In this document: positions 2,354-50,123 of the stretch, one piece after another
How the letters are laid out: each line of letters opens with the position of its first letter
Position numbering within the stretch: the stretch's first letter is position 1
Origin: Acidimicrobiia bacterium
Lineage (GTDB): Bacteria > Actinomycetota > Acidimicrobiia > Spongiisociales > UBA5794
DNA length: 51,796 nucleotides
Direction of reading: 5' to 3'
Assembly (NCBI GenBank): GCA_030431785.1
Contig: JAUIIM010000005.1
Span: 1 to 51,796 of the forward strand
The notes under the pieces: model-generated
What the model saw: the letters and a program-made list of their open reading frames with translations, nothing else
What the model was told of the DNA's origin: nothing
Databases searched by the model: none
Program-made: the position numbers and the translations under genes

Positions 2354-2414
2354 GGACGATTGTCGGATTGTCGGAACGAGGAGTCAGAAAGCAAGGAGCC
2401 AGGCGCGAGGAGCC
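2354..2414. repeat. Composite short tandem repeat: 8-mer GATTGTCG x2 followed by degenerate 7-mers of AGCCAGG type
   Basis: ggacgattgtcggattgtcgga then ...caaggag ccaggcg cgaggag; same motif order as 4557-4620. Confidence 0.6.
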
Positions 2415-4556: not shown

Positions 4557-4651
4557 CGGATCATCGGATAGTCGGATTGTCGGATTGTCGGCCAGCAGCC
4601 GGGAGCCAGTAGCCAGTAGCTTGCGCCTACACGCCTACACGCCTACACGCC
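4557..4651. repeat. Three abutting tandem arrays: CGGATTGT-type 8-mer x4, CCAGTAG-type 7-mer x4, ACGCCTAC 8-mer x3.5
   Basis: Read directly: cggatcat cggatagt cggattgt cggattgt / ccagcag ccgggag ccagtag ccagtag / gcgcctac acgcctac acgcctac acgcc. Confidence 0.9.
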
Positions 4652-6030
4652 CCCCGGGCCTGCTGGAAGGCGAAGGCGGCTCGCAGGACGTCGACGTCGG
4701 CGTGGTGGCGGCCGACGATCTGGAGACCGACGGGAAGACCGTCGGGGGTGAAGCCTGCCGGGACCGAGATGGCGGGCAGCTCGCACTCGGAGATGTAGTA
4801 GCACGTGGCGAACCAGCTGGTGTAGTTCTCCATCGCGACGCCATTGATTTCGGTCGGGTACTCCTGGTCGATCGGGAACGGCAGCACCGCGGAGGTCGGG
4901 ATCGCAAGGAAACGATGCTCGTCGAGAAAGGCCATGACACGCTGGCGCAGCCGCGTCTTTGCATTCGCCGCCTTTCCGATGTCGGCTGCAGTCAGCGTGA
5001 GGCCATACTCGGTGTTCCAGCGGATGGTGTCCTTGTAGTGCTCCGGATGACGGTCGATGACGTCGCCGAACTCCTTGGCGTAGTAGTACCCACGGAACAC
5101 TTTGAAGGCTTCCTCGGCACCACGGAAGTCCGGAGACGCATCGCGAACATCGAAGCCGATGGACCGGAGAACGTCCCTTGCCGGTTGCAGTGCCTCCGTC
5201 ACGGTAGGTTCGATGGGCAGGCCACCGAGGTCATCCGACCACGCGATCGGTACGCCCGTCCAGTCCGCTGCGAGAGGTGTCGCAAACACGCTTTCGGATT
5301 CTTCGATCGAGATCGGGATGCGCTCATCGGGGCCAGCGCAGGCGGCCATGAAAAGGGCGACGTCCTCGACCGACCGTGCCATGGGGCCGTGTACCGAATG
5401 CGTCCACCAGGCGTCCCTGCTGGGCCACGTCGGGATGCGTCCCGGGGAGGGGCGGAACCCCACCGTGCTCGTGAACGACGCCGGATTGCGAAGGGAGGCT
5501 CCGTAGTCCGATCCATCGGCGAGGGCGACCATTCCCGTCGCCACCGCAACGGCAGCTCCGCCGCTCGATCCTCCGGGGGTCAGGTTCCGATCCCACGGGT
5601 TCCGAGTGACCCCGAACACTTCGTTGAACGTCTGGGACCCCGCTCCGTGCTGCGGAGTATTCGTCTTTCCAACGGTGACCGCACCTGCCTGCTGCATCCG
5701 CTCGACGATGAGGGTGTTCCTCGTCGGGACATGGTCTGCGTACACCGGCGACCCGAACGTGGTGCGGATTCCTTTGGTCTCGTGGAGATCTTTGTGTGCA
5801 ACGGGTAGCCCAGTGAGGAGTGGGATGTCGCCGCCGCGAGCGAGCCGTTCATCGGCAGCCTGCGCCATCTCATGCGCGACTTCAGGTACGAGCGTGACGA
5901 TCGCGTTGAGGTCGTCGTTCACCTCGTCGATTCGCGCAAGATGCAGATCGAGCAGTTCCACTGCAGAGATCTCACGCCGCCGGAGCATGGCCGCCTGGTC
6001 GACAGCTCTTAGGTCAACGATGTCCGTCAT
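4627..6030 (-). CDS. Amidase (amidase-signature family)
   Basis: GLPVAHKD, GKTNTP, TPGGSSGGAA and GSDYGASLRNPA (Ser-cisSer-Lys triad region). Confidence 0.93.
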   Translation of the reverse strand: MTDIVDLRAVDQAAMLRRREISAVELLDLHLARIDEVNDDLNAIVTLVPEVAHEMAQAADERLARGGDIPLLTGLPVAHKDLHETKGIRTTFGSPVYADHVPTRNTLIVERMQQAGAVTVGKTNTPQHGAGSQTFNEVFGVTRNPWDRNLTPGGSSGGAAVAVATGMVALADGSDYGASLRNPASFTSTVGFRPSPGRIPTWPSRDAWWTHSVHGPMARSVEDVALFMAACAGPDERIPISIEESESVFATPLAADWTGVPIAWSDDLGGLPIEPTVTEALQPARDVLRSIGFDVRDASPDFRGAEEAFKVFRGYYYAKEFGDVIDRHPEHYKDTIRWNTEYGLTLTAADIGKAANAKTRLRQRVMAFLDEHRFLAIPTSAVLPFPIDQEYPTEINGVAMENYTSWFATCYYISECELPAISVPAGFTPDGLPVGLQIVGRHHADVDVLRAAFAFQQARGACRRVGV

Positions 6031-16383: not shown

Positions 16384-17829
<1,446 letters not shown>

Positions 17830-31811: not shown

Positions 31812-32876
31812 ATGGCGGACAGTGAGACAGCGGACCGGAAGAGCTTGCTATCACGCGTCACGGGACGGGCGACCGATGTGGTCATGGATGCCGTCGACCC
31901 GGACGAAGTGCTCGATCGCATCGATGTCAACGCACTGTTGGACAGAGTTGATCCGAATGCCCTGCTCGACCGTGTCGATCCGAATAAGCTCCTCGATCGT
32001 GTCGACCCCAACGCACTGCTGGATCGCGTGGATCCGAACGCCCTGCTCGACCGTGTGGATGTCGACCGGCTGATGAACCGCGTCGACGTGGACGCTCTGC
32101 TCGATCGTGTGGATGTCGAGCGATTGGTCGACCGGGCTGGCATCGCCGACATCGTACGCGAAAGCACCGGAGCGTTGGCTGGTTCGGCTCTTGACGTGTT
32201 CCGTCGCCAGCTTGTCGCCCTTGATCAGATCGTCGGTCGCACCACCTTTCGCATGATCGGCCGTGACCCGAAGACCCGTCCGCAGTTCCCGGCGGACCTT
32301 GAGGTCCCGTCAGGCACGGATGAAGGAGGTCGCGGGCAGGTCACCGGACACTTCGCAGGTCCGATCACGCGACTCGTGGCGTTCGCCGCTGATGTCCTCG
32401 TCGTCTGGATGCTCATGATCCTGATCGGTGTCGCTGTCGCCTTCGTCGGGGGGCTCTTCGGCTATTCGCTGGATGAGCACGGTGCGGTCTACGGAACGCT
32501 TGCCCTGCTCACGTTCGGGACCCTCGTCCTCGTATACGGGACTGCCAGCTATGCCATCGCAGGCAAAACGGTTGGCATGAGCGTGTTGGGGCTTCGAGTA
32601 CTCGGTCATGACGGCGGTGGCCTGAACGGATGGGCGGCACTCCGTCGGACGTTCGTGCTCCCATTCTCGGTACTCGTCTTCGGGCTCGGGTGTATCGGGA
32701 TCATCACGAGTCCGGAGCGCCGGACCCTGCACGATGTCGCTGCGAACTCAGTGGTCGTCTACGACTGGGGTGATCGTCCCGCCGAGATGCCGGCCCCGAT
32801 CACGCAATGGATCGACCAGCACGGTGGAGTCGAGGACAGCCTCGTGGCAGGGACCGACGTCAGCGACGACGGCTGA
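31812..32876 (+). CDS. RDD family membrane protein with N-terminal 9-aa repeats
   Basis: AGPITRLVAFAAD, GKTVGMSVLGLRV and RRTLHDVAANSVVV motifs; (V/I)DPNALLDR repeats. Confidence 0.85.
   Translation: MADSETADRKSLLSRVTGRATDVVMDAVDPDEVLDRIDVNALLDRVDPNALLDRVDPNKLLDRVDPNALLDRVDPNALLDRVDVDRLMNRVDVDALLDRVDVERLVDRAGIADIVRESTGALAGSALDVFRRQLVALDQIVGRTTFRMIGRDPKTRPQFPADLEVPSGTDEGGRGQVTGHFAGPITRLVAFAADVLVVWMLMILIGVAVAFVGGLFGYSLDEHGAVYGTLALLTFGTLVLVYGTASYAIAGKTVGMSVLGLRVLGHDGGGLNGWAALRRTFVLPFSVLVFGLGCIGIITSPERRTLHDVAANSVVVYDWGDRPAEMPAPITQWIDQHGGVEDSLVAGTDVSDDG
31893..32135 (+). repeat. Coding 27-bp repeat x9 (VDPNALLDR)
   Basis: Nine 9-aa units with synonymous DNA divergence. Confidence 0.9.
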
Positions 32877-47342: not shown

Positions 47343-47350
47343 GCTCGCAC

Positions 47351-47426
47351 AGATCACGGATCACGGATCACGGATCACGGATCACGGATCACGGGTCACG
47401 GATCACGGGTCACGGATCACGGATCA
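47351..47426. repeat. 7-mer array GGATCAC x11
   Basis: Read directly; two GGGTCAC variants and one AGATCAC. Confidence 0.97.
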
Positions 47427-47433
47427 GCATCGG

Positions 47434-47502
47434 TGGCTCATGGCTCATGGCTCATGGCTCATGGCTTATGGCTCATGGCTCATGGCCCATGGCTCATGGC
47501 TT
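47434..47502. repeat. 7-mer array TGGCTCA x9.8
   Basis: Read directly; variants TGGCTTA and TGGCCCA. Confidence 0.97.
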
Positions 47503-47503
47503 C

Positions 47504-47561
47504 GCTCCTAGGCAACCATGGCGAGGAGCTAGGAGCGAGGAGCCAGAAGCTCCTAGGCAAC
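47504..47561. repeat. nAGGAGC 7-mer array bracketed by 13-bp direct repeat GCTCCTAGGCAAC
   Basis: Copies at 47504-47516 and 47549-47561; between them gaggagc taggagc gaggagc cagaagc. Confidence 0.8.
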
Positions 47562-48182
47562 AATCATCTCGGCGTCGGGTTGTTGGAACACGAATGCCAC
47601 CGCGAGGGCTTCGTCCCTCGGCCAACCCGACAGTGTTTGCGAGGCAGTCGCATTCGCATAGGAGCGGAACTCGCTCCACGTCATCATCGTCTGTGGGGTG
47701 ACCGCAAGGCTTTGGTCCGGCTTCTCGCTGAGCGTGCCGGCGACGAACGAGAAGGCATCCATCTCGACCACCGCGAGATCGAGTTCCTCGCAGCGTCGGA
47801 TGAACTGTTCTGCGGTCGAACGATCGAAGAAGCCCTCACCGTCCTCCGTGCGGTGGACGATTTGTTCGTCGAACTCGGCGAGGAGCTCCTTCGTCGCAGG
47901 GTGTTCGTCATCCCACTGTTGGTCTTGTGCGGCTTGGCGGAGTTCGGCGAGGTCGTCGTCGAGCCCATCGGGATCGACCATGCGGATGGCCGTATCGAGT
48001 CGAAGTTGGAGCTCGCGCACGTCGAGGTCGTGGACGTCACCATCGGCATCCGGATAGATCTGTACCACGGTGGTCTCTCCATCGTGGAACACCATGCCGA
48101 CGAACTCTTGTCCACGCCACATCTCGACGATCGGTCCGTCGAAGTCGTCGCGTTCGGTTTCTACGAGTTGGATGGGCAGCAT
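47553..48182 (-). CDS. Acidic hypothetical protein
   Basis: Long ORF with GC-skewed codon usage; start MLPIQ chosen (TATCCT upstream); family not recognised. Confidence 0.7.
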   Translation of the reverse strand: MLPIQLVETERDDFDGPIVEMWRGQEFVGMVFHDGETTVVQIYPDADGDVHDLDVRELQLRLDTAIRMVDPDGLDDDLAELRQAAQDQQWDDEHPATKELLAEFDEQIVHRTEDGEGFFDRSTAEQFIRRCEELDLAVVEMDAFSFVAGTLSEKPDQSLAVTPQTMMTWSEFRSYANATASQTLSGWPRDEALAVAFVFQQPDAEMIVA

Positions 48183-48221
48183 ATGTCGTGAGGATAGGCG
48201 GCGGACCCACACTCGGACGAC

Positions 48222-48587
48222 TCACCTCTGACCGATGATCACCACGACCAGTCCGACGGCCATGTAGATCGCTCCCAGGAGAAGTGGCATGTTGGTCGTC
48301 ACCGTCTCCGTGCCGCGAGGCGTCTCCCAGTTCGCTCCGTTGATGGCCAGGTCGATCAGGGAGCCGGTGACGGGTCCGAGGATCATCGTGAGGATCCCCA
48401 GGACGATCGTTGCGTAGCCGAACCCGACCAAGTAGTCGATCCCCTCACACGAGGCGCCGACGATCGTCCCGTCGCAGAAGTCGGGCCAACGCGGAACGGA
48501 GATCCAGGCGACGATCCATGCCGCGAGGAGACCGGCAGCGAACAGCACGGTCGTCCGAATCCATCGGTTCTGCAGTAGCGAGCGCAT
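48222..48587 (-). CDS. Small membrane protein, hypothetical
   Basis: Three hydrophobic segments; TAGGGT-6nt-ATG. Confidence 0.7.
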   Translation of the reverse strand: MRSLLQNRWIRTTVLFAAGLLAAWIVAWISVPRWPDFCDGTIVGASCEGIDYLVGFGYATIVLGILTMILGPVTGSLIDLAINGANWETPRGTETVTTNMPLLLGAIYMAVGLVVVIIGQR

Positions 48588-48604
48588 GTGGCAACCCTAG
48601 ATCA

Positions 48605-48995
48605 TCGATTCCGATCCCAGATTTCAGATGCCAGATTCCAGATCCCCGCGCCTATGCGCCTACGCGCCGTCACGCTCGGATCATGGATCATGGATCATGG
48701 ATCATCGATCCGGCGCAGCCAGGAGCCAGGAGCTAGGAGCCAGGAGCCAGGAGCGGCGCGCCTGTACGCCTACGCGCCTCCGCGCTCGTACGTCGGATGG
48801 TCAGATTGTCGGATTGTCGGACCGCGCCCTTCCACCCCTGGGAGGTAATCATGGGTCCGTGGTAGCCAGGAGCCAGGAGCCAGGAGCCAGGAGCTGGCAC
48901 TACGATCCAGGAACGAGGAGCGGCGTGCCTATGCGCCTCCACGCGAACGCGCCACCACGCCACCACGCCCCCTCGCCCCAGCGCCCATACGCCTC
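48605..48995. repeat. Mosaic of about 9 consecutive 7/8-mer tandem blocks
   Basis: CAGATnn x5, CGCGCCTA x3, GGATCAT x4, AGCCAGG x5, CGCGCCTn x3, GTCGGATT x4, AGCCAGG x4, a degenerate AGGA pair and nnCGCCnn x9. Confidence 0.92.
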
Positions 48996-49046
48996 CTCCA
49001 CTAGTCTCGGGAGGGATTCCACGTCGTCGCAGCGGAAGGAAGTGTG

Positions 49047-50123
49047 GTGCCCACATATCGTCCGGACCTTGAGGCGATCCCTCTCTATGTACCAGGGAAA
49101 CCGGTCGATGAGGTAGCCCGCGAACTCGGTCTTGCATCGATCGACAAGCTTGCGTCGAACGAGTGCCCGACGGCACCGTTCCCCGAGGTCGTCGAAGTGA
49201 TCGCACGTGCGGCAACCGAGGTCAACCGGTACCCGGACAACGGCACGTTCGCCCTCCGGGGAGCGCTCGCTGCGTTCCATGGGGTCGATCCGGACGCAGT
49301 ATGGGTCGGGCATGGATCCAGCGACCTGCTTCGCTCGATCGCCATGGCTGTCGGCGGCGAAGGCACCTCCCTGGTGTTCGCCGATCCGTCCTTCGTGCTG
49401 TACCGCATGATCGCGCTTCTGACCGGGTCGACACCCGTTCCGGTGCCGGTGACCGATGACTACGGACACGATCTCGGTGCGATGGCGGATGCGATCGACG
49501 ACACGACCTCGTTGGTGTTCATCTGCAACCCGAACAACCCCACCGGTGGTCACTTGTCGCACTCCGAGGTCGAGTCGTTCATCGATTCGGTCCCCGAGTC
49601 AGTGCTCGTAGTGGTGGACGAGGCCTATGCCGAATACGTGACCGCCGACGACTACCGATCACAGCTGGCCACCGCACCGACCTTGCCGAATGTCGTGGTC
49701 CTCAGGACTTTCTCCAAGGCGTACGGTCTCGCCGGTTTGCGGGTCGGCTACGCCGTGGGCAATCCAGACGTGCTGAACTCCGTGAAGCGCACACAGGCCC
49801 CGTTCGCCGTGACATCGGTAGGACAAGCGGCGGCACTCGAGGCGCTCAAGCATCAAGCAGCCCTGCGCGAGCGGGCGGTCGTGAACGCCTACGGACGGGC
49901 GTACCTCGTCGATGCCCTCAGGGAACGTGGCTACGACCCCGCCCCGACCCAGGCGAACTTCGTCTATTTCATACCCGAGGAACCGGCGGCGGACCTCGGT
50001 GATCGGCTTCTCCGCCAGGGCACGATCGTCCGTGTCCTCGGTGACGGAGTCCGGGTGAGTGTCGGGACCGACGAAGAGAACGCACGGTTCATCCGGTCCC
50101 TCGACTCGGTTCGGTCTCAGTGA
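49047..50123 (+). CDS. hisC: Histidinol-phosphate/aromatic aminotransferase (HisC/Pat family)
   Basis: YVPGKP, KLASNE, FICNPNNPTG, VDEAY and LRTFSKAYGLAGLRVGY motifs. Confidence 0.85.
   Translation: MPTYRPDLEAIPLYVPGKPVDEVARELGLASIDKLASNECPTAPFPEVVEVIARAATEVNRYPDNGTFALRGALAAFHGVDPDAVWVGHGSSDLLRSIAMAVGGEGTSLVFADPSFVLYRMIALLTGSTPVPVPVTDDYGHDLGAMADAIDDTTSLVFICNPNNPTGGHLSHSEVESFIDSVPESVLVVVDEAYAEYVTADDYRSQLATAPTLPNVVVLRTFSKAYGLAGLRVGYAVGNPDVLNSVKRTQAPFAVTSVGQAAALEALKHQAALRERAVVNAYGRAYLVDALRERGYDPAPTQANFVYFIPEEPAADLGDRLLRQGTIVRVLGDGVRVSVGTDEENARFIRSLDSVRSQ

Follow-up and report, generated by a model that had tools for sequence, protein, structure and literature searches.

A compound mosaic of 7- and 8-nucleotide repeat arrays in a divergent intergenic spacer of an Acidimicrobiia bacterium

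Introduction

Reports of bacterial genomes rich in heptamer repeats go back to 1990 and surveys of them to 2007, and their origin and function are described as still unexplained (PMC4692102, PMC4679880). Long simple sequence repeats (LSSRs) of prokaryotes have units of 5-11 nt, among which heptamers are commonest, and an origin by polymerase slippage has been proposed for them (Mrazek, Guo and Shah 2007, as cited in PMC4679880 and PMC4692102). Here we analyze a mosaic of such short arrays at positions 48605-48995 of a 51,796-nucleotide stretch of DNA from an Acidimicrobiia bacterium (GenBank assembly GCA_030431785.1, contig JAUIIM010000005.1; hereafter the window). An earlier note, made from the letters alone, had described the mosaic as successive blocks of different 7- and 8-mers and had proposed that it records repeated insertion and excision, stores donor arms, or forms a structured RNA or a protein-binding platform. 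Like LSSRs as described in those sources, the arrays consist of head-to-tail 7-8-nt units, are far more frequent than chance allows, lie mostly between genes and are sporadic among related species; tandem units of 5-11 nt, an excess over shuffled sequence and the placement of units that are not multiples of three mostly outside genes all hold for the locus or its genome. They differ from LSSRs as portrayed there in that one spacer can hold up to 10 arrays of different units, in fixed relative orientation and in a preferred order.

Several described repeats resemble the mosaic in part. The intergenic heptamers GGGAATC of Xanthomonas and GGGGAYT of Nostoc were of unknown function and had "no detailed literature" in 2015 (Rehm et al. 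2015, PMC4692102); those of Xanthomonas are 89-93% intergenic and, according to that report, show no leading- or lagging-strand preference and are tied neither to mobile elements nor to surface genes. Our arrays share with both the mostly intergenic location, the lack of strand preference, the independence from mobile elements and surface genes and the conserved genomic sites, and the Nostoc unit also has one degenerate position. Yet the Xanthomonas and Nostoc genomes, as presented there, are dominated by a single G-rich, quadruplex-forming unit whose arrays vary in length between close species, whereas here about 130 non-G-rich families are compounded in modules and no length change separates two strains. 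The short tandemly repeated repetitive (STRR) sequences of cyanobacteria (Calothrix, as summarized in PMC4692102) likewise comprise several heptamer families per genome in non-coding DNA, with function unknown; they belong to another phylum and consist of other units. TAACTGA direct repeats of marine Beggiatoaceae are found chiefly a short way before start codons and have been proposed to act post-transcriptionally (MacGregor 2015, PMC4679880). On the published account these heptamers, too, are numerous, directly repeated between genes and patchily distributed among relatives, but they are built from a single unit, while we find many units and no bias relative to gene starts.

In architecture, modular composites of the BOX type come nearest. 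Pneumococcal BOX (boxA-boxB(n)-boxC) and the neisserial intergenic mosaic element (NIME) are modular interspersed elements (Croucher et al. 2011, PMC3049150), and as characterized there they share with our mosaics a dispersed intergenic location, modules that keep their relative orientation, variable copy number and either orientation to genes. BOX modules, according to the same source, measure ~45-60 bp and come with terminal inverted repeats, target duplications and folded structures, whereas the 7-8-nt micro-arrays seen here lack inverted repeats and folded structure and follow no strict order. Within the limits of a search of open-access text, we found no literature combining Acidimicrobiia, tandem repeats and intergenic, and co-orientation of different unit families is not described in the open-access portions of the literature on such repeats that we consulted. 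The kind of repeat is thus already known; what is new here is a polar, modular grammar across unit families. We consider it probable that the region consists of non-coding, compound LSSRs acting as filler between the core promoters of two diverging genes.

Results

Three modules in a divergent spacer

Inspection of 48605-48995 bore out the block list of the earlier note, every block being present at its position. Tandem Repeats Finder (TRF) returned 11 rows of period 7 and 8 spanning 48607-48986, and arrays of at least three copies cover 222 of the 391 bases. The closing 8-mer series is exactly the nine units read before, of which only cacgcgaa departs from the common form. We read the region as three copies of a loose module that recurs across the genome (Table 1). 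The first AGCCAGG array contains a single AGCTAGG unit. The window contains the junction GGAGCGGCGYGCCT just twice, at 48750 and 48917 (shuffle expectation, 0.16); since it is common to modules 2 and 3 alone, it points to a duplication in place. Only array parts of the target recur elsewhere in the genome, its junctions, islands and flanks being unique. Inverted repeats of at least 10 bp are absent from 48560-49060, and we found no consensus promoter or terminator in the region.

The mosaic occupies a 456-bp spacer from which a membrane-protein gene and an aminotransferase gene diverge; our gene calls come from a home-made, crude codon-usage model and agree with protein matches in relatives. 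Judged by eye, the product of the left gene appears to be a small membrane protein. This gene adjoins the aminotransferase gene in five relatives (45-59% identity), where the orthologous spacer is only 89 bp (genome G010), 88 bp (G008), 97 bp (G001), 79 bp (G017) or 64 bp (G003) and contains no repeat arrays. Block content is therefore anything but identical in distant relatives, and compared with the spacers of congeners the mosaic adds ~370 bp. Metagenome contigs yielded no further locus of the same species, the closest aminotransferase relative being 63% identical.

Both edges of the spacer carry a -10-like hexamer. In the relatives' short spacers, a gap of 6-7 nt separates TAGCCT-like hexamers from the small gene's ATG, which, with TAGGGT in the window, suggests a leaderless promoter for the left gene. 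On the other side, relatives keep a GAGTAYYNT motif ~32 nt before the aminotransferase start, and in a weak alignment TAGTCT falls roughly there; the aminotransferase gene has a GTG start preceded by a Shine-Dalgarno-like GGAAGGA. Because the window's hexamers are at places comparable to those of relatives, the repeats would fill almost exactly the DNA between the two putative promoters, and any effect that they have is probably limited to setting these ~370 bp further apart than in related species.

Table 1. Features of the mosaic and its flanks, in window coordinates
Feature	Coordinates	Strand	Basis
Module 1 (partial): GAT-core heptamers CAGATNN 48607-48646, then CGCC-core octamers CGCGCCTA 48647-48668	48605..48668	+	sequence, TRF
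Module 2: GGATCAT x4.7 48678-48710, AGCCAGG x5.4 48717-48754	48678..48785	+	sequence, TRF
Module 2, right part: junction GGAGCGGCGCGCCT 48750-48763, CGCC-core octamers CGCCTACG 48767-48785		+	sequence, TRF
Module 3, left part: GTCGGATT x3.8 48792-48821, then unique island	48792..48995 (module)	+	sequence, TRF
Module 3, middle: perfect AGCCAGG x4.4 48864-48894, then decayed AGGAGCN units		+	sequence, TRF
Module 3, right part: junction GGAGCGGCGTGCCT 48917-48930, nine octamers NNCGCCNN 48924-48995		+	sequence, TRF
Unique island, no copy elsewhere in genome	48826..48863	.	genome self-search
Left gene: 121-aa protein, three hydrophobic stretches, no Pfam family	48222..48587	-	own gene call; relatives' proteins
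Right gene: class I/II aminotransferase, histidinol-phosphate-aminotransferase-like	49044..50123	+	PF00155, E 7e-59
-10-like hexamer TAGGGT (minus-strand reading), 6 nt upstream of left-gene ATG	48594..48599	-	sequence
-10-like hexamer TAGTCT, 36 nt before GTG start	49002..49007	+	sequence

The arrays are common and mostly intergenic across the genome

The window is contig C112 of a fragmented metagenome assembly (G000; 2.375 Mb, 173 contigs, 95% complete) that holds 586 arrays of at least three copies, 433 of period 7 and 153 of period 8. These fall into 79 and 51 strand-collapsed unit families; the earlier description of the mosaic as joining five of six families thus holds for the window alone, the genome having ~130. 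The commonest units are AGCCAGG (53 arrays), GTCGGATT (40), AGCCATG (34), AGATCGG (33) and ATCATCG (31). By our crude gene calls, 362 of the 433 period-7 arrays and 120 of the 153 period-8 arrays are mostly intergenic, the corresponding counts being 6/69 for period 6, 5/42 for period 9 and 1/14 for period 12. Arrays underlie 4.9% of intergenic DNA. They occur in 202 of 1350 spacers, with little regard to the arrangement of the flanking genes: 39 of 263 divergent, 46 of 259 convergent and 117 of 828 co-directional spacers (59/427 and 58/401) bear at least one. Real spacers contain 310 period-7 and 88 period-8 arrays where three dinucleotide-preserving shuffles gave 2-6 and 1-4, so the blocks are not a product of chance.

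Within this landscape the target locus is ordinary. Its spacer, with seven merged arrays, is one of four with that number, and four others have more (8, 8, 8 and 10). Contig ends show no link to arrays, 11 of 346 lying within 100 bp of one, which is the chance level (0.031). Two contig stretches, C67:18-161 and C127:7406-7515, share 110 bp of mosaic at 100% identity, probably an assembly overlap at a contig end rather than a recent copy.

Arrays of different families share a polarity

Same-family arrays up to 1 kb apart are co-oriented in 35 cases and opposite in 4. The same-orientation recurrence that the earlier note had seen over tens of kilobases stands within the window (2356-2414, 4563-4654) and fails genome-wide, where arrays more than 1 kb apart on the same contig are concordant in 36 cases and discordant in 34. 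Orientation is nonetheless constrained between families: 115 of 127 adjacent hetero-family pairs are in the majority orientation (null 90.1 +/- 3.5), a value reached by none of 2000 permutations in a test that used TRF consensus units and no prior sign convention. Allowing one vote per family pair per spacer left 94 of 105 consistent (null fraction 0.72 +/- 0.03; 0 of 2000 permutations), and 91 of 101 once the window's contig was removed; as spacers may share ancestry, these votes are not fully independent. Among labelled arrays outside C112, the relative orientation of AGCCAGG and CGCC-type neighbours is constant (16 to 0), the score for the four core families pooled is 90 to 12, and 28 of the 31 spacers in which two or all of three families are represented are uniformly oriented.

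Read in the common polarity, the arrays also have an order bias. GATCATS precedes AGCCAGG 14 to 7 and CGCC-type arrays 13 to 6; CGGATTGT precedes AGCCAGG 12 to 3, and AGCCAGG precedes CGCC-type arrays 12 to 6. The preferred module thus runs from a GAT-core array (GATCATS, CAGATNN or CGGATTGT) through AGGAGCN heptamers to CGCCNNNN octamers. This order is not strict: in our labels, C144, C80 and C112 read S>P>D, but C149 and C170 read S>D>P. Junction phase is fixed, in that GATCAT arrays end ...GATCC and are followed by GCGCC. At a tolerance of one mismatch, the genome has 16 copies of the 17-mer GATCATCGATCCGCGCC, spread over 10 contigs, and each of 40 relatives has 0-2; its 20 matches in viral contigs we assume to be coding or chance. 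Tandem super-units of ~78-150 bp are present at C149, C170, C144 and C80, and composite alignments between loci extend across at least two arrays; C170, for one, is 88.6% identical to the target over 70 bp that straddle the GATCAT-to-AGCCAGG junction. The remark in the earlier note that local slippage alone does not explain the mosaic is therefore well founded, as the families recur at dozens of spacers in fixed relative orientation and with shared junction phases.

No surrounding feature that we compared is related to this polarity. The orientation of units follows neither the local GC skew nor the gene-strand majority, nor does it follow neighbours that are co-directional. The polarity of whole mosaics splits 23 to 14 against the flanking or downstream gene, 36 to 29 against gene-strand majority, 17 to 15 against other mosaics on the contig and 30 to 17 (p 0.08) and 17 to 11 against GC skew, and is independent of gene direction, GC skew and neighbouring mosaics.

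Such behaviour might be that of a non-autonomous, modular mobile element related in kind to BOX, NIME or the bacterial interspersed mosaic element (BIME): a composite of micro-arrays, mobilized in trans, that inserts either way round and whose inner arrays expand and contract. The consistent family-pair votes, the indifference of polarity to its surroundings, the junction phase common to about 10 spacers, the order bias and the multi-array matches between loci all fit this idea. Against it, neither terminal nor other inverted repeats of at least 10 bp are present around the target, the target's flanks and inner islands are unique, its fold is no more stable than that of shuffles (see below) and module order varies between loci. 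In addition, the 95% complete genome contains no Y1_Tnp and no DDE_Tnp_1 transposase and only two rve matches, other transposase families not having been searched. We regard a mobile element of this sort as improbable, and the same counts leave little room for the insertion and excision scars suggested earlier. Two mosaics, at C11:3880-4140 and C163:4102-4762, adjoin genes or gene ends of rve-type (by eye, IS481-like) transposases, and at C11 one AGCCAGG array begins directly after the transposase C-terminus.

The mosaic is stable between strains

Strains were compared at this one locus, in contigs from a k-mer assembler rather than in reads. A single 13,466-base contig of depth 41 from run X5, which belongs to another study, spans 48100-49400 colinearly and at equal length, with 39 substitutions, one 1-bp insertion and one 1-bp deletion relative to the window. 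The strain that it represents is ~2-3% diverged; in the flanking genes the difference is 1.7-1.8%, with 9 of 488 sites changed on the left and 6 of 357 in the aminotransferase gene. Run X9 carries the same variant in two pieces, and contigs from X1 and X4 are identical to the window. Across all arrays, the X5 strain shows no gain or loss of unit size. Perfect runs at the locus do not exceed 33 bp and are thus just resolvable by a k-mer assembler; since the mosaic is colinear in a diverged strain, the collapsed-repeat misassembly that the earlier note had allowed for is excluded. Equally, arrays in which no unit has changed between these strains are not hypervariable on that time scale. As a rough estimate from zero changes in ~8 arrays, they change in length no more than ~20 times as fast as single sites undergo substitution.

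Substitutions are unevenly placed. Thirteen of them and a 1-bp deletion fall in the unique island at 48829-48855, while the adjoining arrays (48632-48828) are unchanged. The island looks like a replaced patch rather than the result of point mutation. In the window strain this island holds GGGAGG, 7 nt, ATG and a 4-codon open reading frame, which are lost in the other strain's version. At three differences (48913 with 48915, and 48945), deviant units of the window correspond to the canonical AGCCAGG unit or CGCC core in the X5 strain.

These results bear on whether array length could act as a phase-variable switch that toggles or tunes the two flanking promoters. The arrays abut both putative -10 hexamers, and long simple sequence repeats of host-adapted pathogens can switch or tune expression, at least as reviewed in PMC4679880. 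However, no copy number changed between strains 1.7-1.8% apart in flanking genes, and the rate bound lies far below that of contingency loci. The arrays would, moreover, stand upstream of the -10 elements and not between promoter elements, and the flanking genes are of housekeeping type. A contingency locus is accordingly very unlikely.

The comparison also speaks against a last pair of ideas, a structured non-coding RNA gene or a recording array that a reverse transcriptase or an integrase would write. For these we see nothing beyond the outward look of an ordered mosaic, and we consider them close to refuted. The earlier note had suggested comparing block order among strains for polar growth; block order and copy numbers are the same in the diverged strain, and hence the mosaic is not an actively growing record. 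It had also looked to a co-occurring reverse transcriptase, and RVT_1 was found in none of 11 genus genomes although three control genomes were positive (Cas1 was not searched). For an RNA, there is no Rfam match in the whole window and no inverted repeat at the locus, and the sequence folds no better than shuffles (z +1.27 and +1.12 on the two strands, with 88 and 85 of 100 shuffles folding at least as well). Among 18 sequencing runs none was listed as RNA, a result that weighs neither way. Nothing supports the idea of a donor library of arms.

The repeat repertoire turns over between species

Relatives were sampled from their first-numbered contigs only, 40-490 kb each. The target genome contains 247 7- plus 8-mer arrays per Mb as a whole and 230 when sampled in the same way. 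Densities per Mb within the genus are 172 in G005, 160 in G008, 127 in G004, 75 in G009 (40 kb sampled), 68 in G003, 60 in G002, 51 in G001 and 47.5 in G006, and fall to 0 in G010 and G007 (200 kb sampled); a member of another genus (G017) has 20 and one of another family (G037) has 5. A link to mismatch repair was considered and dropped, as 10 of 11 genus genomes have NucS, the array-free G010 and G007 among them, and its presence does not correlate with array density.

Unit repertoires hardly overlap between species of the genus. AGCCAGG x3, with one mismatch allowed, has 56 matches in the target genome and 0 in 40 relatives, and GTCGGATT x3 has 16 and 0; G027 and G038, both unpublished, are counted among the relatives in these tallies. 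It is largely the target genome that has octamers and long mosaics. In G005, polarity was the same in 3 and opposite in 3 of just 6 informative adjacent pairs in 489 kb. GGACCGA x3, the reversed control pattern, matched whole genomes of four congeners (G004 5, G005 13, G008 1, G009 3) and not that of the target, indicating that relatives carry other heptamer families. From these distributions and the strain comparison, we infer that the target's arrays arose after its species split from its congeners and before the two compared strains separated, and that they are now nearly frozen.

Exact AGCCAGG x3.4 also occurs in at least 118 stretches of unrelated bacteria (loci L233-L350) and six viral contigs, with hosts, among the matches listed, in Acidobacteriota, Planctomycetota, Desulfobacterota, Verrucomicrobiota, Streptomyces and a cyanobacterium. 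None of the 155 outside arrays listed has a CGCC-, GATCAT- or CGGATT-type neighbour. As AGCCAGG is found elsewhere without its partner families, the unit arises independently there, and the grammar is peculiar to this lineage. One Desulfuromonadales metagenome-assembled genome has exact AGCCAGG arrays on six contigs, often at contig ends.

Units have conserved cores and variable positions

Variation inside the units is concentrated at particular positions. Mismatches by position number 23, 9, 68, 4, 4, 5 and 130 in AGGAGCC (352 units); 2, 6, 3, 22, 58, 25 and 91 in GATCATC (261 units); and 13, 22, 1, 4, 12, 35, 36 and 8 in CGGATTGT (183 units). The detector allowed two mismatches anywhere in 15-16 nt and favoured no position, although near-variants such as AGCCATG were split into families of their own, so that variation is undercounted at some positions. 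At wobble positions all three alternative bases are common. Conserved cores are AG.AGC. (in the 352 units), GAT in GATCATS, GGAT in CGGATTGT and CGAT in CCGATCT; the corresponding result for the CGCC family is circular, since the detector required CGCC. Variation in AGGAGCC is asymmetric about the CCAGG palindrome. Palindromes as such are not enriched (a 4-bp palindrome in 32 of 76 heptamer families; null 29.2 +/- 3.7), and with regard to restriction sites the genome-wide observed/expected ratio of GATC is 0.95.

Conserved cores invite the remaining proposal of the earlier note, a protein-binding platform. The arrays would here be rows of sites, spaced 7 or 8 bp, for an asymmetric DNA-binding or single-strand-binding protein, and the mosaics would organize or insulate intergenic DNA. 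Ribbon-helix-helix proteins that coat heptad rows and nucleoid-associated proteins offer examples. Consistent with a platform, the cores are held constant while one or two positions take any base, the asymmetry of AGGAGCC about CCAGG makes a strand-aware reading plausible, the mosaics have an intrinsic polarity, and the three strain differences described above turn deviant units into the canonical unit or core. Even so, ~130 unit families in a 2.4-Mb genome are too many for dedicated binders, and the repertoire turns over almost wholly between species, as the AGCCAGG tally illustrates. Two congeners are array-free in the 200 kb sampled, arrays are equally frequent whether the flanking genes converge, diverge or run the same way, and they face in both directions relative to genes; no candidate protein was identified. 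On balance, we think that a platform is an unlikely explanation, although it is the main rival to the one that we prefer.

Other repeats in the window

Further arrays lie outside the target. The convergent spacer one gene upstream (47348-47551) contains CACGGAT x11, then TGGCTCA x9.7, then AGGAGCT-type x4; the latter two are near-inverted (AGCCATG versus AGCCAGG) and could pair. Across the genome, AGCCATG arrays are opposite in orientation to AGCCAGG arrays. At 17697-17764, CGATCTC x3.6 is followed after 12 bp by its inverted form GAGATCG x4.1, making an inverted pair of heptamer arrays. A 27-nt tandem repeat (81-nt higher-order) at 31893-32119 lies inside the gene at 31812-32876 and, its period being a multiple of three, probably encodes a 9-residue protein repeat.

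Discussion

The compound LSSRs that would occupy the DNA between these two promoters were most likely assembled in three steps. The 7- and 8-nt units would have been amplified by strand slippage or unequal exchange; a ~150-bp block with AGGAGCN and CGCC arrays would then have been duplicated in place; and recombination or gene conversion, acting on segments of several arrays, would have brought the composite in from other spacers or traded it with them, a process that would keep the relative orientation of arrays while scrambling their order and copy numbers. Nothing points to a dedicated enzyme, an RNA product or a recording function.

Several observations weigh against so simple a history. 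Foremost is the pattern of cores and wobble positions, the main evidence against a purely neutral account: position-specific conservation is not expected of neutral filler and suggests selection or a templated process. A fixed orientation across at least eight families is likewise hard to obtain from slippage and occasional recombination unless there was a common ancestral composite or a directional mechanism, neither of which was identified. Inter-locus matches are just 73-95% identical over 60-140 bp, meaning that no recent copying event has been caught, and with no empty/filled-site pair at the strain level the arrival of modules in spacers was not observed.

These points leave some place for a bolder proposal, namely that the mosaics, far from being passive microsatellites, are the products or targets of a strand-aware system. 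It would write polar modules (GAT-core, then AGGAGCN, then CGCCNNNN) into whatever DNA is free between genes, and each species would come to have a different repertoire. Such a system might consist of proteins that read conserved 3-6-nt cores 7-8 nt apart, or of templated repeat addition or copying that dispenses with a canonical reverse transcriptase. We offer it as speculation, and judge it distinctly unlikely.

Whatever their origin, the arrays provide three handles on heptamer-rich genomes: the fixed orientation and order among families, the conserved cores with wobble positions, and the stability between strains set against turnover between species of the genus. Should these features hold in complete genomes, simple neutral slippage would be insufficient, and descent from a composite element, selection on the cores or a directional mechanism would have to be invoked. 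The locus itself is best seen, on our preferred interpretation as compound LSSR filler, as repeat padding between two promoters, and not as a gene or a recording device.

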